DNA of 64,000 nt, from NCBI GenBank assembly GCA_032691205.1, contig GCA_032691205.1_4541.1; one strand, given 5' to 3'. Source of the DNA: a phage. Of the stretch, positions 1,505-23,617 are shown in pieces. Position 1 is the first letter of the stretch. Each line of letters begins with the position of its first letter. A model generated the notes under the pieces. It had not been told where the DNA came from. It was given only the letters and a program-made list of their open reading frames with translations, and searched no databases. The translations under genes were made by a program, and so were the position numbers.

Positions 1505-1651
1505 TTAATCCTCTAAATCCATCCAATTATATTTGTCACTCTTCCCGCGCTTTGTTTTATTGCGCTTGTCGCCTTTGCGGATCACTTCCTCGTTCCAGGC
1601 CTTGCGGATCTTGGAAGATTGAATTTTTTCTGCGCGATTAGATGTATTCAT
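1505..1651 (-). CDS. hypothetical small basic protein (48 aa)
   Basis: Hand-translated MNTSNRAEKIQSSKIRKAWNEEVIRKGDKRNK...; RBS GAGGAAA; between unit 5 and the terminator. Confidence 0.45.
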   Translation of the reverse strand: MNTSNRAEKIQSSKIRKAWNEEVIRKGDKRNKTKRGKSDKYNWMDLED

Positions 1652-1671
1652 TTTGTTTCCTCTTCATATGA

Positions 1672-1724
1672 GCGGCACCATTGCCGCTATATTGTTAATT
1701 TAAGCTGTTTTGTAAAATTGTCAA
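1672..1724 (-). promoter_or_regulatory. early promoter + 5'-UTR hairpin unit 5
   Basis: Minus strand TTGACA-16nt-TAAATT, hairpin GCGGCA-CCAT-TGCCGC. Confidence 0.6.
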
Positions 1725-1730
1725 GGTTTA

Positions 1731-2084
1731 TCATTCATAAGAGCAAGCAAGGATCACGCCTGCAATATAAAGCCAATAATTTTCCCTTTCTCGTTGGATT
1801 TTATCATCGCTGCTATTCTCTTTAATGTATCCCCAGGATGTTAACAAGCGATCAATTTCCCAATATTCGAAAGCGATATTGATATCTGATGGCAAACCTT
1901 GTAACCATGATGCAAGTGCTTTAACAATACTATAATTAAAACGTGATTGGTTATCAGGGTACCAGTACTCGGAATTAAAACGGCGCATCAATTCCGCGAT
2001 CTTCTCTTTTTCGGTTGTAATACCGTAATCATTAAAATCGATAGCGGCAAGTATGTACTCTTTAATTGCATTTTGTGCTTTCAT
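1731..2084 (-). CDS. hypothetical protein
   Basis: ORF 117 aa downstream of unit 6. Confidence 0.65.
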   Translation of the reverse strand: MKAQNAIKEYILAAIDFNDYGITTEKEKIAELMRRFNSEYWYPDNQSRFNYSIVKALASWLQGLPSDINIAFEYWEIDRLLTSWGYIKENSSDDKIQRERENYWLYIAGVILACSYE

Positions 2085-2103
2085 GGTCTTTCTCTCTTTT
2101 TGA

Positions 2104-2160
2104 GCGGGAACTATTCCCGCCCTACGTGTAACAGTTTACTAAAAATTAAATCGGTGTCAA
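2104..2160 (-). promoter_or_regulatory. early promoter + 5'-UTR hairpin unit 6
   Basis: Minus strand TTGACA-16nt-TAAACT, hairpin GCGGGAA-CTA-TTCCCGC. Confidence 0.6.
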
Positions 2161-2163
2161 GCT

Positions 2164-2385
2164 TTATTTTGTTACTACCATTTGGTACCCTGTTTCAATG
2201 TTAGTAAATACTGTTATTCCGTCCTGGCGTTCACTCATTAGCATACAAGGCGCTAACATCCTTTCTACTGCCTTGCACTCATTGTAAACGGCGGTTATGT
2301 CTCCTGCGGCCTTGTCTTCTGTGGTGAATGTATCGTTTACGTAAACCTGACCAGCGACAACGGCGACAATAGCGAAAGTGATCAT
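2164..2385 (-). CDS. hypothetical protein
   Basis: ORF 73 aa (MITFAIVAVVAG...). Confidence 0.6.
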   Translation of the reverse strand: MITFAIVAVVAGQVYVNDTFTTEDKAAGDITAVYNECKAVERMLAPCMLMSERQDGITVFTNIETGYQMVVTK

Positions 2386-2418
2386 GATGTTTCCTTGTTA
2401 GTAGTGGTTTCTCTTCTC

Positions 2419-2456
2419 TATAGCGCCCATTATAAGGCGCTATAACGAAAAGTCAA
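2419..2456 (-). promoter_or_regulatory. variant promoter with a palindrome over the -10
   Basis: Minus strand TTGACT-16nt-TATAAT; the -10 lies in the loop of a 9-bp palindrome TATAGCGCC/GGCGCTATA. Confidence 0.45.
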
Positions 2457-2459
2457 CGA

Positions 2460-2627
2460 TTATTTTTTAAGGCTTAAAGTACCTAACTTGTCAGCATGAC
2501 GCAGACCAGGGAAGATCCATTTTCCTGATTCATCTTTTACAGGGGCTTTAAGCGTAGCGCCCAGGTTGGCGGCGTTAACTTTACGGGCAACGTTGCGAGC
2601 GGCTTCACGGGTAGTAAAAGTGATCAT
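2460..2627 (-). CDS. hypothetical protein (55 aa)
   Basis: Hand-translated MITFTTREAARNVARKVNAANLG...; downstream of unit 7. Confidence 0.45.
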   Translation of the reverse strand: MITFTTREAARNVARKVNAANLGATLKAPVKDESGKWIFPGLRHADKLGTLSLKK

Positions 2628-2650
2628 GATGTTTTCCTCTTCTCTTTGTT

Positions 2651-2713
2651 AGGCGGTGGACCATTCCGCCGCCTTGATGTAATACAGTTTACTTTATTTT
2701 TGCAGTATTGCAA
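2651..2713 (-). promoter_or_regulatory. early promoter + 5'-UTR hairpin unit 7
   Basis: Minus strand TTGCAA-16nt-TAAACT; 10-bp hairpin AGGCGGTGGA-CCAT-TCCGCCGCCT with one G.U pair. Confidence 0.6.
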
Positions 2714-2718
2714 GCGTT

Positions 2719-2931
2719 TTATGAAATAATCGTCAAAGTAAAATTGTAATCACCTGATTGGTACAATACTTTATCACCGAACGTTCCAACACGTTTAACA
2801 TTGCAATATATACCCATAACACTTTTTACATCTTTGATATTCTTCACGCCTGTAATATCTTTATTAAAATGATCGTGATCAGAAAATAAAACTTGACTTG
2901 CATTTTTTAACAGTGTGCGGATATTAGCCAT
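2719..2931 (-). CDS. hypothetical protein
   Basis: ORF 70 aa downstream of unit 8. Confidence 0.6.
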   Translation of the reverse strand: MANIRTLLKNASQVLFSDHDHFNKDITGVKNIKDVKSVMGIYCNVKRVGTFGDKVLYQSGDYNFTLTIIS

Positions 2932-2956
2932 CGTGATAATCTCTCTTCTGTTGTGA

Positions 2957-3012
2957 GCGGCACTATTGCCGCCCTACGTAATACAGTTTACTCTTTTTCT
3001 TTCCCGTGTCAA
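2957..3012 (-). promoter_or_regulatory. early promoter + 5'-UTR hairpin unit 8
   Basis: Minus strand TTGACA-16nt-TAAACT, hairpin GCGGCA-CTAT-TGCCGC. Confidence 0.6.
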
Positions 3013-3021
3013 CAATCTTTT

Positions 3022-3249
3022 TCAGATTAATTCATCCAGGCATAACAGGCGATCAACGTTGAGATCGGTCAGGCTGATGGTTGGCACCTGGTAGGATTCG
3101 ATGTACTCGACGCTTGCATATTCCCCAAAATTAGCAATAGCCCACTTATTCAAGATCTCACATACATCATTAATCTTTTTGTTTGTTACAACTGCAATAA
3201 CCTGGGAAGTGCCAACGGTGCCGGATACGCGAACAATATTGATAGCCAT
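3022..3249 (-). CDS. hypothetical protein
   Basis: ORF 75 aa downstream of unit 9. Confidence 0.6.
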   Translation of the reverse strand: MAINIVRVSGTVGTSQVIAVVTNKKINDVCEILNKWAIANFGEYASVEYIESYQVPTISLTDLNVDRLLCLDELI

Positions 3250-3271
3250 AATCTTTAATCTCTCTGTTGTT

Positions 3272-3331
3272 GGCGGGAAACCACTTCCCGCCCTATGTGA
3301 TACATCTTACACTAATTTTAAACGTTGTCAA
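3272..3331 (-). promoter_or_regulatory. early promoter + 5'-UTR hairpin unit 9
   Basis: Minus strand TTGACA-16nt-TAAGAT, hairpin GGCGGGAA-ACCAC-TTCCCGCC. Confidence 0.6.
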
Positions 3332-3340
3332 CTGTTTTTA

Positions 3341-3580
3341 TTACATTCCAACCATCGCGGCGCGGATCGCAGTTTTACTATACTTAAAGCCGTCTGGCGT
3401 TGTAGTGATTCCATCCTGTTTCAAACGGTAGCACATTAAATCAGCCGCCTGATCTTTATTACCGCACTCATTGATCAATCCCAATGCAAACCGATACAAT
3501 CCCTCATCGTTATTAATCCACAGGCTTACATTCCAATGAGTTTTGTTTTTGTGACCGTTGTACATTTTAGATTTAGCCAT
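3341..3580 (-). CDS. hypothetical protein
   Basis: ORF 79 aa downstream of unit 10. Confidence 0.6.
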   Translation of the reverse strand: MAKSKMYNGHKNKTHWNVSLWINNDEGLYRFALGLINECGNKDQAADLMCYRLKQDGITTTPDGFKYSKTAIRAAMVGM

Positions 3581-3603
3581 GATTTTTCTCTCTTTTTCAG
3601 TGA

Positions 3604-3662
3604 GGCGGGAAGTGTTCCCGCTCTCTATGTAATACAGTTTACTCTTTTTATTCGTGCTGTCA
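3604..3662 (-). promoter_or_regulatory. early promoter + 5'-UTR hairpin unit 10
   Basis: Minus strand TTGACA-16nt-TAAACT, hairpin GCGGGAA-GTG-TTCCCGC. Confidence 0.6.
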
Positions 3663-3669
3663 ATGCTTT

Positions 3670-4023
3670 TTATAAATCTTTTTTACGTTTTACATCGCTT
3701 GCATGACTGTATACAGCGATCCCATTATCACGACAAAAACGGGTAAGGTATGATCCGCGTGAAAACTCTTTCCCTTCCAGGTCAACAACCTTGCTAAATT
3801 CTTCCAGGGCAACGGTATCAAAATGATCACCATAACCATATTGAAACGGCACGTTAACAACTTCAATCAATTTACCGCCGATCTCAACGTCCACGCTTAA
3901 AGAAAAATATGTGTTACCGTAGGACTGTTGAAACCAGCGACGGGCGCTAATGTGAACGGCTTCAATCTCACCAATTTTAAATTGAGTGTTACCCAGGATC
4001 GCAACGTTGATATTTTTAGCCAT
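3670..4023 (-). CDS. hypothetical protein
   Basis: ORF 117 aa downstream of unit 11. Confidence 0.65.
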   Translation of the reverse strand: MAKNINVAILGNTQFKIGEIEAVHISARRWFQQSYGNTYFSLSVDVEIGGKLIEVVNVPFQYGYGDHFDTVALEEFSKVVDLEGKEFSRGSYLTRFCRDNGIAVYSHASDVKRKKDL

Positions 4024-4048
4024 GATTTTTTCTCTCTTTTTGGTTAGT

Positions 4049-4100
4049 GGGAAGTGTTCCCGATAAAAGTTATTATGCTTATACTATCGTTTTTTGTCAA
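4049..4100 (-). promoter_or_regulatory. early promoter + 5'-UTR hairpin unit 11
   Basis: Minus strand TTGACA-17nt-CATAAT, hairpin GGGAA-GTG-TTCCC. Confidence 0.55.
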
Positions 4101-4119
4101 TAGTATAAGACTAAAACTT

Positions 4120-4299
4120 TTAACGATAATCGTCGTAGGCTTTATTAACCTGGCGAATATAACATTCGAAAGCGAGATCAATAGAATCATATTCCCGCAC
4201 ATAATCCCCGTAAGAAACTACATACACACCTTTTTGATCCTCAAACGTCATGATGATAGAATCCAGGCCGATGATTTCAGTTTTAGCGATGATAGTCAT
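4120..4299 (-). CDS. hypothetical protein (about 59 aa)
   Basis: Hand-translated MTIIAKTEIIGLDSIIMTFEDQKG...; downstream of unit 12. Confidence 0.45.
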   Translation of the reverse strand: MTIIAKTEIIGLDSIIMTFEDQKGVYVVSYGDYVREYDSIDLAFECYIRQVNKAYDDYR

Positions 4300-4320
4300 A
4301 ATAATAACCTTTTTATTGTT

Positions 4321-4377
4321 GGCGGCACCATTGCCGCCCTACGTGATAAACTATACCAGAATTTTAAACAGTGTCAA
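4321..4377 (-). promoter_or_regulatory. early promoter + 5'-UTR hairpin unit 12
   Basis: Minus strand TTGACA-16nt-TATAGT, hairpin GGCGGCA-CCAT-TGCCGCC. Confidence 0.6.
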
Positions 4378-4387
4378 ACGTTTTTTC

Positions 4388-4633
4388 TTAGTTTGCGAAA
4401 TATGGCGCGGCGGCTGATGCCGTTAATCTCCAAGTGATTTGGCTATCGATCAAGTATTCTTCATTCTTGATCCGCACGGTATCAATCGAGAAGTTACTGA
4501 AAGGCTTGCTCTTGATTTTACGAACAACCGTTACACGACGGTTATTTTTCATCTCTTTTAACTGAATCCAGGCGTAACCTTTTTCATTGACAAATATTTC
4601 ATTGTGATTGGTGATAGATGATAAGTGTTTCAT
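4388..4633 (-). CDS. hypothetical protein
   Basis: ORF 81 aa downstream of unit 13. Confidence 0.6.
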   Translation of the reverse strand: MKHLSSITNHNEIFVNEKGYAWIQLKEMKNNRRVTVVRKIKSKPFSNFSIDTVRIKNEEYLIDSQITWRLTASAAAPYFAN

Positions 4634-4656
4634 GATTTGTTTCTCTTCTGTTTTGA

Positions 4657-4716
4657 GCGGTGGACCATTCCGCCGCCCTATGTGTTACATCTTACTACTT
4701 TTTTAAACATTGTCAA
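4657..4716 (-). promoter_or_regulatory. early promoter + 5'-UTR hairpin unit 13
   Basis: Minus strand TTGACA-16nt-TAAGAT, hairpin GCGGTGGA-CCAT-TCCGCCGC. Confidence 0.6.
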
Positions 4717-4724
4717 GGATATTT

Positions 4725-5006
4725 TTAACTATATGATCCACATCGTTCGCAGTAGTGATCATCGTCGTCATCTGCTACCTGGCTGATAAAATGATCTACC
4801 TTTGCTTTCAAATTATTATAATTGCTTTCTACTTCCTGTAGTCGTCGTTGGTAGTATTCCAGGGCTTGCACATAGGCCATTTGTTCGGTTTTAGCTTGCA
4901 CAGCTAAATTCATGCCGCGCGTTTCATCGTATAACCAATAACCATCATTACATTCACTAATAGATAGTGTAGGGCTTAGTTTTTCGTGACGGATAACCTT
5001 GCTCAT
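4725..5006 (-). CDS. hypothetical protein
   Basis: ORF 93 aa. Confidence 0.6.
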   Translation of the reverse strand: MSKVIRHEKLSPTLSISECNDGYWLYDETRGMNLAVQAKTEQMAYVQALEYYQRRLQEVESNYNNLKAKVDHFISQVADDDDDHYCERCGSYS

Positions 5007-18924: not shown

Positions 18925-19293
18925 ATGAAGGTATTAAACTTTTACCATTTAGGCAAAACAATCCCAGAAGGTGCTGTTTATATTGGTAGAGCAATGCCAC
19001 ACATGGGGCTAAAAGCCTCCAAGTTTGCAAACCCTTTTAAGTTAAAAGATGATGAACCACGAGGATCAACTATACAAAGGTATAAAGAGTGGTTGTGGGA
19101 GCAAATTCGTTGTGGTAAGATCACTCTTGAAGATTTATTAGGGTTAGAAGGGAAAGATTTAGTTTGTTTCTGCTCACCTCAACCTTGTCATGGAGATGTA
19201 TTGGTAGCAGCCGTAGCTTGGGCTAGAAAAGAGTGGGACAAAAGGCATCCTACTTATGTAGACAATTATTGGATTTGGGAGGAGAATTTTTGA
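18925..19293 (+). CDS. DUF4326-like protein
   Basis: FANPFKL ... LVCFCSPQPCHGDVL resembles the DUF4326 signature. Confidence 0.45.
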   Translation: MKVLNFYHLGKTIPEGAVYIGRAMPHMGLKASKFANPFKLKDDEPRGSTIQRYKEWLWEQIRCGKITLEDLLGLEGKDLVCFCSPQPCHGDVLVAAVAWARKEWDKRHPTYVDNYWIWEENF

Positions 19294-19643
19294 AAAATAT
19301 TATTGATGTGGATGTGTTTGGTATCACAACACTACAAGACAAACAAGCAACATTGTATTATCATAAAAAAGAGGACCAAGCTTACATCTACATCGGGGCA
19401 GAAAAGTTTGGTGTCGGAGATATGGTTTTAAATGTTGAAGGAGATCTTCCTTTAGAACAAAAGTTGAAAGTTTTTCGTTTCACAGGAGATGTTAAACTAG
19501 ATGGCGTTATCGCAATCCTACAAGAAGACCATTATTATATGGTAACTTTCGTTACTCCTGCTTTCTCTGGCCTTAATGGAGAAGAAGCTCTTAATGATGT
19601 TATTATCTTAAAGATTGGTAATGCTCTAAACGATGTAAACTAA
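19291..19643 (+). CDS. hypothetical protein (start uncertain, possibly TTG)
   Basis: RBS GGAGGAG precedes TTG at 19291; the track ORF begins earlier at 19233. Confidence 0.35.
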
Positions 19644-19656
19644 AGGGGGAGTGAGT

Positions 19657-20166
19657 ATGTTCTTTGATGCAAATTCTCTTTTTGTATCTACAGCAGGGCA
19701 GTCTGCTGTTAATGCAGAATTTGAGGAAAGAGAAGAATGGATTGATAATCACAACTACGATCCAAGTAATTTAAACTGGTGCAGTTTGGATGTTGGTAAT
19801 CTTAGTAGAGATAATGCACTTAGAGCATACTACTCTGTATATACTGTTGACAATCTTTATCAATACTACGTGTTTCGTAGTCTTATTGTTAATCTTAATT
19901 TAGCTGGACGTTTAAAGAACAATAAGGCATTCACATTGGGACATTATATTCCCTTCCGTAAAGGTGGTGTGCATTTTCCATGCAATTGGATTATTCAAAC
20001 ACGAAAAGAAAACAGTTTAGCAGGAGACACCATGCCAAGATTTAAAGATAAGTGGACATGGGAAAAACAAATGGGGTACATTAATGCACATTTGCCACCT
20101 AATCTAAAAGAACCTTACGCCAGCAGAGCTAAGGAAATGATGAGGATTGTCAAGAGTTTTTATTAA
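19657..20166 (+). CDS. hypothetical protein
   Basis: ATG at 19657 with RBS AAGGGGGAG. Confidence 0.55.
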   Translation: MFFDANSLFVSTAGQSAVNAEFEEREEWIDNHNYDPSNLNWCSLDVGNLSRDNALRAYYSVYTVDNLYQYYVFRSLIVNLNLAGRLKNNKAFTLGHYIPFRKGGVHFPCNWIIQTRKENSLAGDTMPRFKDKWTWEKQMGYINAHLPPNLKEPYASRAKEMMRIVKSFY

Positions 20167-20180
20167 GAGAGGAGAAATAC

Positions 20181-22811
20181 GTGTCTACACAATTGAGTTT
20201 TACACCTACTGATGAACAATACGCTATTGAAAGCGGGTATAAAGAAAATCGTTTCGTTACAATTCAAGCTAAATCTGGATCAGGTAAAACGTCAACACTG
20301 TATATGTTGGCTAATGGCACAAATGATAGTATTCTATATTTGGCATTTAACAAAAGTATGGCAGAGGAAGCTCGACGTAAAATGCCGCCCAATGTTATGT
20401 GCCGAACGCTACATTCAATCTGTTACCAACGTCTTCCACAAAACCTTCGACACAAATTGTCTCGTCCAGAAGGTCAATATGTTAACGTAGCTGGAACTGG
20501 TAGTGAGATTGCCAAAAAATTCAAGATTCAGAATTTGATTGATAAGAATGGTAAAGTGCTACTGACTCGTGCAATGATCGGGTTAATGGTAAAACAAACT
20601 TTAGCTAAATATGAGTTTTCTGACGATGAACATATTGGACATAAACATTTTCCTAAAGTGCATATGTCAGATCTTAAACGTAAGAACATCAACGAACAAA
20701 AACTTATTAACGAAGTTGTTAAATATGCGAAGCAACTTTGGCGTGAGCGTATTGATCCTAAATCAGAAACCATTATGACTCATGACACCTATGTGAAACT
20801 CTTTGAATTGAGTAAAGAAGATTTAGGATACGATATTATTTTTGGAGATGAATTCCAGGATGTTAACCCTGCATTCCTGTCTATCCTTCGCAATGCTAAA
20901 TCGGCTAAACGTATTGTTGTTGTGGGTGATGAGTTTCAGTGTGTGTCTGAGAACACTTTGCTTAACACTGAACAAGGGAAAGTTTTAATGAAAGATCTTC
21001 AGGTCGGGGATAAAGTAGAGTCTTACTTAAACGGTAAAGTGGTGTTTAAAACAGTCACAAACAAAACTTTATCTACTCGAACAGAAGGCAGAAACATTAT
21101 TACATCCAAAGGGAATACGTTAGACATGACTCACAATCATCGCATATGGGCTTCTTCTTACACTTTAAAAGAAGACCAAATGATTGTTTACCTTATGTGG
21201 AGAAAAGATTTAGGCTTTCGTGTAGGAATTACTAACAAATTCGATGATAAAGAAGGTTTTTCTAAACTGGGGCAACGTACACGTTCTGAAAAAGCACAGA
21301 AATTGTGGGTGTTGGATATTGTTGAAAACCGTGAAGCTGCTATGGAAAAAGAAATGGCATACAGTTTACAATATGGCATTCCTACTTGTGTATTTGAAGC
21401 AAGTTCACGCAGTATTAATCAAGAAAGGGTCAATAACATTTTTGAACAATTCGGACAAAACGGTTTTAAACTTTTAGAGGATAAAGATTATCATTTTGAC
21501 TATCCTCATTGGCACAGTATTAACTCTTCAACAGAGAATCGCAAAATGCTTACTGTCTCACTGCGTGCTCAAGGTAAGAAAGGGACTGAGGTGCACTTTG
21601 AATGGACAGAAGAAGAGATGCAGATTTTCGATACTTTGGTAGAGGCAGGTGTTAAGATAAGTAATGCTAAAAATGCAGGTCGTTTCCGTGTTCGTAAGTA
21701 TTTTGCATCTTATAGTGAAGCTTTAACTTTCGCAGAAGAAATTTTAACTATTATTCCTTTCGCCTCTTTGAAAGAGTCTATGGCATCTGTAGATGGTGTA
21801 AAGTATAACTTAATACCTGCCGCAGGATTGTTTAAAGGAATGTCTGTGCTTGTTAAAAACGGGGATACTGTTGTTGCTGAAGAGATTGTAGAGATTGAAG
21901 ATACTCAAGGTTTCTACTATGATGTAGAGATTGAAGATACTGCAAACTTCTTTGGGAATAACATTTTAAGTCATAATTGTATCTACCAGTTCCGAGGTAG
22001 TTCTAATATGATGGTTGAGACTGCCACATATGGGGTTGAGTTGCCTCTGACAGCTTGTTTTCGCTTTGGTCCTAAAGTTGCGGACATTGCTAATGCGATC
22101 CTTTCTGATCGCTCACCTCTGAAGCATCCGCTGGTAGGGAAAGGTTATGATACTGTCACTGGAAGTTTTCATTCTGATGTGGTAGATTATAGTAAACCTT
22201 ACACCATTATTTTCCGTAAGAATTTGACCCTGTTGCTCGAAGCTATGGATCGAATCGCTAACGGAGAAGAGATTATTATTAACGTAGATACCAAAGATTT
22301 CATTTCTATGGTTGATAGTGTTAATGCTTTACGTAGAGGTGATTTGGACAAAGTTAAGCATGAGACAGTTCTACCTTACACTTCTTGGGAAGAATTTGTA
22401 GAGTGTGCAGAATCAGATCCTGATGCAAAACGACTTTTAAACATCGTTGTTTCTGGTAAAGCTAATAATATTGCATACACTTTACGTATGCACCGTAACT
22501 CTCCAACGGCTAAAGTTACTTTAACTACAGCCCACAAATCAAAAGGTTTGGAATGGGATCAGGTTATTGTTGCAAATGACTTCCCTTCTAATTATGATAA
22601 GAAGGGTGAGTGGGTAGGTCTTGAAGAATCAGAACGAAATCTTCTGTATGTTGCACATACACGTTGTATTAAATGTCTGCAATGGAACCGAACTGTTCAA
22701 GAGATTTTAGACATGCATCGTTTAGGTAAGAGCACGGCTCCTGTATCTGAAGAAGATAAGCTTATAGCTGCCCTTGCTCGTAAGATTAATCAAATCAGAG
22801 AGGATCGTTAA
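20181..22811 (+). CDS. UvrD/PcrA-like superfamily 1 DNA helicase, interrupted by an intein
   Basis: GTG start with RBS; Walker A AKSGSGKTST, motif II FGDEFQDVNP, motif III rebuilt as GDEFQ|CIYQFRGS after removing 20940-21977. Confidence 0.8.
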   Translation: MSTQLSFTPTDEQYAIESGYKENRFVTIQAKSGSGKTSTLYMLANGTNDSILYLAFNKSMAEEARRKMPPNVMCRTLHSICYQRLPQNLRHKLSRPEGQYVNVAGTGSEIAKKFKIQNLIDKNGKVLLTRAMIGLMVKQTLAKYEFSDDEHIGHKHFPKVHMSDLKRKNINEQKLINEVVKYAKQLWRERIDPKSETIMTHDTYVKLFELSKEDLGYDIIFGDEFQDVNPAFLSILRNAKSAKRIVVVGDEFQCVSENTLLNTEQGKVLMKDLQVGDKVESYLNGKVVFKTVTNKTLSTRTEGRNIITSKGNTLDMTHNHRIWASSYTLKEDQMIVYLMWRKDLGFRVGITNKFDDKEGFSKLGQRTRSEKAQKLWVLDIVENREAAMEKEMAYSLQYGIPTCVFEASSRSINQERVNNIFEQFGQNGFKLLEDKDYHFDYPHWHSINSSTENRKMLTVSLRAQGKKGTEVHFEWTEEEMQIFDTLVEAGVKISNAKNAGRFRVRKYFASYSEALTFAEEILTIIPFASLKESMASVDGVKYNLIPAAGLFKGMSVLVKNGDTVVAEEIVEIEDTQGFYYDVEIEDTANFFGNNILSHNCIYQFRGSSNMMVETATYGVELPLTACFRFGPKVADIANAILSDRSPLKHPLVGKGYDTVTGSFHSDVVDYSKPYTIIFRKNLTLLLEAMDRIANGEEIIINVDTKDFISMVDSVNALRRGDLDKVKHETVLPYTSWEEFVECAESDPDAKRLLNIVVSGKANNIAYTLRMHRNSPTAKVTLTTAHKSKGLEWDQVIVANDFPSNYDKKGEWVGLEESERNLLYVAHTRCIKCLQWNRTVQEILDMHRLGKSTAPVSEEDKLIAALARKINQIREDR
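20940..21977 (+). mobile_element. intein in the helicase (346 aa)
   Basis: Begins CVSENTLLNTEQGKVLMKDLQVGDKV (block A), TxxH at LDMTHNH, ends FYYDVEIEDTANFFGNNILSHN followed by +1 Cys. Confidence 0.75.
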
Positions 22812-23063
22812 ATGGCAGGGTATCACATAACAGACATTAAGAAACAATCTTACGGAAGCATAGAAAAGATTAAAGAGGAAGTGGAAGAACTTTTCGATGC
22901 TGTTGAACAGGATTGCAAAATAATGCAACTTGTTGAACTATCTGATATTATAGGTGCTGTCGAGGGAGTGTTAGAACAACAGTTCCCAGGTACGACTTTA
23001 CAAGATTTGATCATTATGTCAAACATTACTAAACGTGCGTTTCGCACAGGAGGAAGGTCATGA
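22812..23063 (+). CDS. hypothetical protein (possibly MazG-like)
   Basis: 83 aa helical; EEVEELFDAVEQ...LSDIIGAVEGVLEQ is only loosely MazG-like. Confidence 0.3.
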   Translation: MAGYHITDIKKQSYGSIEKIKEEVEELFDAVEQDCKIMQLVELSDIIGAVEGVLEQQFPGTTLQDLIIMSNITKRAFRTGGRS

Positions 23064-23617
23064 ACACAGGTGTGATTGCCGAAGCCATCCAGAGTTATGG
23101 ACGCTTTGCTGAAATGTTAGATGTTCCTTATTTAGTGGATGCAGATATTTTGGCATTCACACTGCCACCTGGCAAAGAAGATGCTCCTTTGGGGCATCCT
23201 AATGGGAAGTTTTATGTTGCCAGTGCCGAGCAATCATTCTTGCAAATGGAAAAGGATGGCTACGAGTTTATCGCTGGTCATCCCTACATGGCCCTGACAC
23301 CATGTTACCGCACAGAGGAAGTGTTGGATGATTCTCACTTCAACATCTTCTTGAAGCTGGAGTTGATTGAGTTCTATCCCAGCTTTGGTGAAGTGAAAGA
23401 GTATGCCGAAGAAATGCGATACTTCTTCTGGACCTACTACAAAGTCCAAACAAGAATTGTAGAAACAGAAATAGGGCTTGACGTGGAAGACATGAATGGT
23501 TTAGAATTAGGGTCATTCGGAACAAGATTGTCCCCACAAGGTCATCCATATATTTATGCAACAGCCATAGCCGAACCTCGTGCATCTATGGCAATTAACA
23601 GGAGGAATCATGATTAA
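23060..23617 (+). CDS. hypothetical protein
   Basis: ORF 185 aa, RBS AGGAGGAAGG. Confidence 0.6.
   Translation: MNTGVIAEAIQSYGRFAEMLDVPYLVDADILAFTLPPGKEDAPLGHPNGKFYVASAEQSFLQMEKDGYEFIAGHPYMALTPCYRTEEVLDDSHFNIFLKLELIEFYPSFGEVKEYAEEMRYFFWTYYKVQTRIVETEIGLDVEDMNGLELGSFGTRLSPQGHPYIYATAIAEPRASMAINRRNHD

Follow-up and report, generated by a model that had tools for sequence, protein, structure and literature searches.

The closest described systems to the element considered here are in phages PaulScherrer (MZ501100, bas60_0082) and JohannJBalmer (MZ501084), where a mat_peptide feature labels the homologous segment 'intein' and the gene product as a whole is called an 'intein-containing UvrD / Rep family helicase precursor', and in phage phi92 (Justusliebigvirus), whose gp198 contains an unannotated copy. 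The BASEL paper delimited inteins by comparative genomics (PMC8594841). Novikova et al. (2016; PMC4760082) list UvrD among bacterial intein hosts, the UvrD inteins lying, like the one described here, in a motif that is conserved in P-loop ATPase domains; the passages found there make no mention of what kind of endonuclease is present, and in the literature searched we found neither the phrase 'UvrD intein' nor a description of the endonuclease type. GIY-YIG enzymes were not known within inteins (Dunin-Horkawicz et al. 2006, PMC1564403; Dassa et al. 2009, PMC2677866), and a 2025 survey described in-frame LAGLIDADG and HNH endonucleases plus antisense and out-of-frame variants, with GIY-YIG mentioned in passing among intein-associated endonucleases. 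We examined a 64,000-nucleotide (nt) stretch of phage DNA (GenBank assembly GCA_032691205.1, contig GCA_032691205.1_4541.1), called here the window, in which a helicase gene contains an in-frame segment of 346 codons at positions 20940 to 21977. We conclude that this segment is very probably a bona fide class 1 intein with an in-frame homing endonuclease, inserted in motif III of a Phapecoctavirus UvrD/Rep-type helicase. It has its host gene, its site (GDEFQ|C...SHN|CIYQFRGS, with bars at the junctions), its length of 346 amino acids (aa), and its domain order in common with the inteins of PaulScherrer, JohannJBalmer, and phi92, to which it is 82% identical in aa and ~77-79% identical in nt; it differs from them in its Phapecoctavirus host and in being a mosaic, phi92-like over codons 88 to 180 and of a separate lineage elsewhere. 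It is, then, an ordinary intein of a kind already annotated in sister phages, the window copy being a divergent new addition.

The host gene is an uninterrupted open reading frame (ORF) with a GTG start, from 20181 to 22811, encoding a precursor of 876 aa; this gene, the intein, and the parts of them described below are all on the plus strand. The exteins matched PF00580 (E=5e-13, residues 23-255) and the C-terminus matched PF13361 (E=2e-10) and PF13538 in Pfam, and the protein matched phrog_1967, 'DNA helicase', in PHROG (E=1e-154). As judged by these profiles, the host protein is a UvrD/Rep-type superfamily 1 (SF1) helicase, and by its sequence relationships the window source is a Stephanstirmvirinae coliphage of Phapecoctavirus type. 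The N-extein (20181 to 20939, 253 aa) ends in ...RIVVVGDEFQ, the first half of motif III, and the C-extein (21978 to 22811, 277 aa plus stop) begins with Cys+1 followed by IYQFRGSSN, the second half, so that the insertion separates Gln253 from the residue at +1 in GDxxQ|[S/C]IYxFRG. The first-pass annotation of this DNA had placed an intein of 346 residues at 20940 to 21977, and these coordinates proved exact to the base: translation gave 346 in-frame residues, CVSENTLL...GNNILSHN, between the flanks ...VVVGDEFQ and CIYQFRGSS..., and deletion of the insert produced GDEFQ|CIYQFRGS as claimed. The assignment has value for annotation; an identical protein in NCBI (ELO6086397.1, on a 153-kb contig) is labelled just 'AAA family ATPase [Escherichia coli]' with the intein unannotated, and a 2024 paper stated that no inteins had been reported in coliphages (PMC11162368). 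The contig of ELO6086397.1 is a phage genome within an E. coli assembly. In most phage records the intein-bearing gene is labelled merely 'DNA helicase' or 'hypothetical protein'.

The insert has the residues and the predicted fold of a class 1 intein. All of the sequence features named in the first-pass annotation, a Cys start, a TxxH block, and a terminal His-Asn followed by Cys, were present at the positions given. The Cys1 nucleophile (20940-20942) is kept in phi92, DIJ07P2, KP13-16, and most metagenomic relatives; block B is T64-H-N-H67 (21129-21140), with T or S at its first position and the His retained in relatives; the C-terminus is His345-Asn346 (21972-21977), followed by Cys+1 (21978-21980). 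All four nucleophile and assisting positions of class 1 splicing are intact here and conserved among relatives. When scanned alone, the insert passed the Pfam model Intein_splicing (PF14890) with 36.4 bits (E=5.7e-9; gathering threshold 35.8), the kind of profile comparison that the earlier annotation had proposed, and its N-terminus gave partial matches to the Pfam families Hint and Hint_2; the whole protein matched TIGR01443 (intein_Cterm) with 16.7 bits against a cutoff of 15.6. An AlphaFold2 model of the intein, built from an 11-sequence alignment, had a mean predicted local confidence (pLDDT) of 87.4 and a predicted template modeling score (pTM) of 0.82. In this model the N-lobe of the Hint domain (20940 to 21164, intein aa 1-75, the region of the partial Hint, Hint_2, and Intein_splicing matches) had beta-strands with pLDDT >90; the C-lobe (21795 to 21977, aa 286-346) contains blocks F and G, His345-Asn346, and the TIGR01443 match. 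Foldseek comparison of the model with the PDB returned gp41-1 (TMt 0.82), the Mtu RecA mini-intein (0.82), hedgehog Hint domains (0.80-0.81), and NpuDnaB (0.78), and the alignments to inteins and Hint domains bridged the central insert, as expected of a Hint domain split by an endonuclease module.

A megablast search of 50,697 phage records with the helicase gene returned 123 records. Thirty-eight of the 123 were intein-bearing (at least 80% query coverage), mostly Justusliebigvirus matching at ~77% in nt. Another ~64, from Phapecoctavirus, gave a two-piece match with 95.5-99% nt identity spanning exactly 1593 nt, the gene length of 2631 minus 1038. In protein alignments the helicases of AV125 and phAPEC8 read GDEFQ|SIYQFRGSQNMMKQ without interruption, i.e. 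GDEFQ|SIYQFRGS, and the empty site in their genes is GGTGATGAATTTCAG|AGTATTTATCAGTTCCGTGGA. Justusliebigvirus EmilieFrey is also intein-less, its intein-bearing relatives being 1038 nt longer, and DIJ07P2 was the only other Phapecoctavirus found with an intein, nearly all sequenced members of that genus being without one; the distribution was sporadic within both genera. Among homologous helicases the segment was a precise 1038-nt presence/absence polymorphism, not ordinary helicase sequence, with boundaries equal to the empty site of the orthologues, and it behaves in these comparisons as a discrete unit with precise bounds. The earlier annotation had named homologues with the segment as ordinary sequence as grounds for refutation, and the comparison went the other way; with the Intein_splicing score, these shorter alleles put the intein well beyond a chance resemblance. 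Together with the helicase profiles, the class 1 residues, and the predicted Hint fold, this bore out the earlier placement of an intein in UvrD motif III. One detail of that placement needed correction: the junction restored by deletion was as claimed, but alleles that naturally lack the intein have Ser at +1 where the window has Cys (GDEFQ|SIYQFRGSQ). Five phage records (MG065639, MG065645, MG065656, MG065689, and MG065650) carry 'Campylobacter phage' labels (host C. jejuni). Their helicase genes resemble that of the window just as closely as do the genes of Justusliebigvirus and Phapecoctavirus phages of E. coli (77% where the intein is present; 98.9% for B15, which lacks it), and these host labels look doubtful.

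The sequence immediately downstream of the intein appears to record its arrival. As far as position -7, the N-extein shares ~99% nt identity with the alleles of Phapecoctavirus that have no intein, and the C-extein returns to ~99% identity beyond the first 48 nt; within those 48 nt (21978 to 22025) there are 17 differences from the intein-less alleles, as compared to 15/1545 elsewhere (binomial P ~2e-17). Many of the changes are synonymous; the amino acid changes are S+1C, Q to S, and KQ to VE. This 48-nt foreign flank looks, from its sequence, like a co-conversion tract. It is not identical to the phi92 flank and the window intein is only ~79% identical in nt to the phi92 type, which implies an unsampled donor. 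In DIJ07P2 the intein is 99.6% identical to that of phi92, and ~275 nt of phi92-identical C-extein follow in an otherwise Phapecoctavirus gene; as read from these identities, DIJ07P2 is a second, independent invasion of Phapecoctavirus, by a phi92-type copy. The tracts of both phages begin at the insertion site and lie almost wholly on the C-extein side, as might be expected if cleavage takes place 3' of that site.

A second kind of exchange is seen inside the intein. Codons 88-180 (21201 to 21479) are 90-100% identical in nt to the phi92-type intein; outside this block the identity is 63-78%. An overlapping gene or RNA constraint was considered as the cause of the identity and rejected, since the block is not conserved relative to the KP13-16 intein, which has 347 aa, occupies the same site (VGDKHQ|C...SHN|CIYGWRGS), and is 60% identical in aa to the window intein. 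Because the block was not seen in the comparison with KP13-16 (50-73% nt identity over these codons), we interpret it as a recombination patch between intein lineages rather than a nucleotide-level constraint; the pattern indicates that codons 88-180, a putative catalytic block, were exchanged as a module. The ratio of nonsynonymous to synonymous substitution rates (dN/dS) between the window and phi92 inteins was 0.036 for the Hint N-lobe (aa 1-75), 0.036 for aa 76-195, 0.15 for aa 196-285, and 0.048 for the Hint C-lobe, values which, as a measure taken from codon comparison, show purifying selection on all parts of the intein. Some actinophage inteins carry their endonuclease in another frame or antisense (bioRxiv 10.1101/2025.01.02.630785). 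The possibility of such a hidden endonuclease was rejected here, the five other frames over the intein being full of stops, with a longest open stretch of 83-86 codons that was not conserved in KP13-16.

The part of the intein between the Hint lobes, residues ~76-285, belongs to a family of its own. The central domain gave no Pfam match even at E<=10, and none among the LAGLIDADG and HNH models; single-sequence phmmer and two profiles found no PDB sequence match, and scans of PHROGs and NCBIfam with 59 relatives of the domain were negative or at the level of noise. No HNH signature was found in Pfam, NCBIfam, or PHROG, the sole 'HNH' string being that of Hint block B; LAGLIDADG motifs and a LAGLIDADG Pfam match were likewise not found, and the predicted topology differs from that fold. 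We therefore rejected both identities, in agreement with the earlier remark that no LAGLIDADG motif was obvious in the insert. That annotation had suggested an endonuclease either of another type or degenerate; these results support the former and give no support to the latter. The domain is well folded as modeled, recurs in conserved form in at least 1451 clusters, evolves under purifying selection (dN/dS 0.04-0.15), and is associated with recent invasions.

An exhaustive hidden Markov model search with a 10-sequence profile of the central module found at least 1451 cluster representatives at E<=1e-3, of which 639 reached E<=1e-10 and 118 reached E<=1e-30. The matches were mostly internal to proteins of 800-2500 aa, and six of six sampled hosts were UvrD helicases with Intein_splicing matches. 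Among the best 150 relatives, 115 copies were at motif III, ending in ...HN|[S 91 / C 23 / T 1]IYxFRG, and at least 12 were at other helicase sites (HN|CQDLN, HN|CQHL, HN|SKQIP). The metagenomic UvrD-family helicases P0011-P0016, P0084, and P0085 each contain two or three inteins with this module at different sites including motif III, from which we infer switching of insertion sites within SF1 helicases. Use of tblastn located the module also in two further sets of inteins, those in DNA methylases from Streptococcus suis phages and those in UvrD-like helicases from SPO1-like phages of Bacillus. The phage records concerned, at 27-34% aa identity, were KY368639 (Bacillus phage Goe2, whose UvrD-like helicase is annotated as intein-containing), KC581799 and MK448983 (S. 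suis phages), and LR745208 (a 485-kb uncultured jumbo phage); the module is thus not confined to enterobacterial phages or to helicases. On this sequence distribution, the window intein is representative of a very large intein family, one with essentially no annotation.

Some members of the family occur outside of inteins. About 13 relatives (P0001, P0002, P0004-P0009, P0018, P0045, and others) are free-standing proteins of 265-358 aa, homologous along the whole intein and without Cys1 and the terminal His-Asn. In four of four contexts examined, the free-standing gene was directly downstream of a UvrD-like helicase gene: at 4001-5002 of locus L007, after a helicase at 2455-3954; at 1943-2929 of L010, after 425-1894; at 3001-3918 of L012, after 1535-3004; and at 194-1270 of L011. 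In the three contexts with a complete helicase, it was uninterrupted, 489-499 aa long, with motif III reading GDxNQ|AI[YF]xFxGAD and therefore Ala at +1. These relatives look like an intein which escaped from its host gene and persisted as an HO- or Seg-like homing-endonuclease-like gene.

The models divide the central domain into two parts. The putative nuclease core (21165 to 21524, intein aa 76-195) has the predicted order beta(81-88)-beta(92-98)-alpha(109-116)-beta(121-128)-alpha(131-145), with a three-stranded sheet, followed by three helices; its invariant or near-invariant residues are Y84, M86, R88, G92, R94, G96, T98, N99, R113, E117, W123, E138, S142, P148, T149, R157, Q161, and H190. 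The second alpha/beta subdomain (21525 to 21794, aa 196-285), modeled as beta-beta-alpha-beta-alpha-beta at ~205-281 with K214, G215, E221, K244, R250, R252, and K253 conserved, is the most divergent part of the intein and a putative DNA-recognition module. The order of elements in GIY-YIG enzymes is Tyr in strand 1, x-V-Gly-x-Thr in strand 2, Arg in helix 1, and Glu in helix 2 (PMC1564403). In the core, Y84 of strand 1, at the place of the 'GIY' Tyr, was invariant in 11/11 and 59/59 aligned relatives, and R113 in the first helix and E138 in the second, each at least 90% conserved, are in the helices expected of GIY-YIG, although no residue-level superposition was obtained. When the BFVD was searched with Foldseek, the top 50 matches began with members of the family itself, followed by at least 10 GIY-YIG, group I intron endonuclease, SegE-like, or MUG113 entries (E 0.01-0.2), a striking enrichment made up of individually weak scores. 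GIY-YIG was the only nuclease family that recurred across both of the independent structure libraries, a recurrence that is hard to ascribe to chance. In Pfam, PF01541 was the commonest sub-threshold match among the 59 relatives (3/59, best E 0.0012). No GIY-YIG gene that might have enlarged the reference alignment turned up when the window and the fetched loci were scanned with a regular expression.

We considered what each reading must explain, beginning with the possibility that the segment is never removed but is kept in the mature helicase, either as a permanent insertion domain or as a domain similar to bacterial-intein-like (BIL) domains with a non-splicing role. Some Hint domains, those of BILs and hedgehog proteins among them, do not splice, and splicing of the window intein is a prediction. 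There are also profile results that weigh against the class 1 assignment: the Intein_splicing margin on the insert is just 0.6 bits, the whole protein scored 33.8 and so fell under the threshold, and TIGR01445, the intein N-terminal model, scored far under its cutoff. However, retention would have to accommodate four class 1 positions that are all intact and conserved in relatives, an insert which separates the Q|S of motif III, and orthologues that function without it, and we regard it as exceedingly improbable. A different possibility is that the intein splices but the central domain is a nuclease-dead fossil retained for folding or splicing, the element now being passed on solely by vertical descent or ordinary recombination. 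The domain matched none of the known nuclease models, and general recombination between co-infecting phages could carry an intein plus flanks. The dN/dS of the core rests on few substitutions, because recombination has lowered the core dS. Against a fossil are the invariant polar residues and strong conservation across at least 1451 clusters, the dN/dS of 0.04-0.15, the sporadic distribution in both genera, and the two gains in Phapecoctavirus, which were independent and site-precise and left foreign sequence starting exactly at the site in both cases; in addition, free-standing relatives beside helicase genes make sense only if the protein acts alone. A fossil nuclease is, in our judgment, improbable, and both splicing and cleavage are activities that we would predict for the window intein from its sequence.

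The nature of the nuclease is less certain. An active homing nuclease might lie outside the GIY-YIG superfamily, with a novel or other fold, e.g. RNase H-like, its small beta-beta-alpha-beta-alpha unit being convergent. Consistent with this, every sequence-profile test against GIY-YIG was non-significant: the window sequence itself gave no PF01541 match, profile searches of PDB sequences found nothing for the core, and hhalign returned a probability of 0.2% against a shallow I-TevI-family alignment whose I-TevI seed was confirmed by 85-100% identical PF01541 matches. The PF01541 result itself counts for little, because in the NCBIfam control scan an unrelated family also reached 3/59 (at E 0.008), placing the former near noise. 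The 'YIG' Tyr of strand 2 is also missing; its place is taken by an invariant Arg, so that the strand reads R94-V-G96-x-T98, with the Gly invariant. In contrast, the helix between beta2 and beta3, the presence of only three strands, and the conservation of a beta1 Tyr, a beta2 Gly-x-Thr, an alpha1 Arg, and an alpha2 Glu suit GIY-YIG over an RNase H-like fold, and GIY-YIG was the sole nuclease family in both structure libraries as well as the top sub-threshold Pfam family. Each single test was weak; taken together they lead us to consider a fold outside of GIY-YIG rather unlikely, and the nuclease core of aa 76-195 as probably GIY-YIG-like. It is possible, and we put it forward as a tentative proposal, that the central domain represents a large, undescribed family of in-frame intein endonucleases with a divergent GIY-YIG core (Y...RVGxT...R...E), specialized for UvrD motif III, modular, and repeatedly escaped to free-standing, HO-like genes beside helicases with Ala at +1. 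Evolution of such a family may have been modular, with the catalytic block swapped between lineages while the recognition block diverged.

If the class 1 assignment is correct, the life of this element can be outlined by means of known chemistry, which for class 1 inteins comprises an N-S acyl shift, thioester transfer, Asn cyclization, and an S-N shift. The 876-aa precursor would be translated and undergo the N-S acyl shift at Cys1; Cys+1 would attack the thioester to give a branched intermediate; Asn346 would cyclize with assistance from His345; and the S-N shift would yield a 530-aa helicase with intact motif III, GDEFQCIYQFRGS, plus the free 346-aa intein. Motif III of UvrD/PcrA-type helicases is the ATP/DNA coupling site, where ATP hydrolysis is coupled to DNA binding; as it is split before splicing, the precursor is presumably inactive. 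In a mixed infection, free intein or precursor would cut intein-less helicase alleles near GAATTTCAG|AGTATTTATCAGTTC, and recombinational repair from the intein-bearing genome would copy the intein and a short stretch of flanking extein. We propose that this conversion of the flank would also place Cys at the +1 position, which is Ser in the empty alleles.

The genes on either side of the helicase were examined as well. The flanking ORFs at 18925-20166 and 22812-23617 contained no Pfam nuclease domain, and an adjacent free-standing nuclease as the true driver of mobility was rejected, the same neighbors being present in intein-less phages. A 171-aa ORF directly upstream of the helicase (19651-20166) had no Pfam match. 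It equals in length gp200 of phi92, a candidate homologue that carries the annotation 'predicted HNH endonuclease-like fold' and whose gene lies upstream of the helicase gene of phi92, two genes away. In the intein-less phages AV125 and phAPEC8 the gene directly upstream of the helicase is of about the same size (169 aa), and thus an ORF at this position is not tied to the intein. A 122-aa ORF farther upstream (18925-19293) matched DUF4326 (PF14216, E=4e-21) and has no relation to the intein.

These phages provide a natural record of homing in sequenced coliphages, consisting of an empty site, two invasions with apparent co-conversion tracts of different lengths, and an intein-intein recombinant. 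Since E. coli K-12 supports growth of the coliphages involved, splicing, homing, and co-conversion are open to direct measurement. The uncharacterized nuclease module is abundant in bacterial and phage UvrD-family helicases; should it prove to derive from GIY-YIG enzymes, the nucleases found in frame within inteins would gain one more class, and it could serve as a compact, modular engineering scaffold. Relative to known systems, the metagenomic relatives are mostly UvrD-family proteins of 800-2500 aa with an ...HN|SIYxFRGA junction, the +1 residue being Ser in most bacterial copies and Cys in phage copies. With PI-SceI/VMA1 and other LAGLIDADG inteins, the window intein shares its architecture, a Hint domain split by an in-frame endonuclease module, and the Hint parts match structurally; its central module, however, has no LAGLIDADG motifs or Pfam match and a different predicted topology. 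To the GIY-YIG nucleases I-TevI, Seg, UvrC, and Slx1 it bears a likeness in its small predicted beta-beta-alpha-beta-alpha catalytic core, behind which lies a putative DNA-binding module of its own, in the Tyr and Gly-x-Thr, and apparently the Arg and Glu, found in the expected elements, and in structural matches that are weak but recurrent; it differs from them in the want of a significant profile match, in having R-V-G for 'YIG' and a longer loop before helix 1, and in being embedded in frame in an intein. Yeast HO endonuclease is a free-standing, intein-derived LAGLIDADG nuclease. The relatives P0001-P0009 resemble HO in being free-standing and in having kept the Hint lobes and nuclease module while losing Cys1 and the His-Asn; these relatives, not the window element itself, differ from HO as phage or metagenome genes directly downstream of an uninterrupted helicase, with a nuclease module that is not of the LAGLIDADG type.

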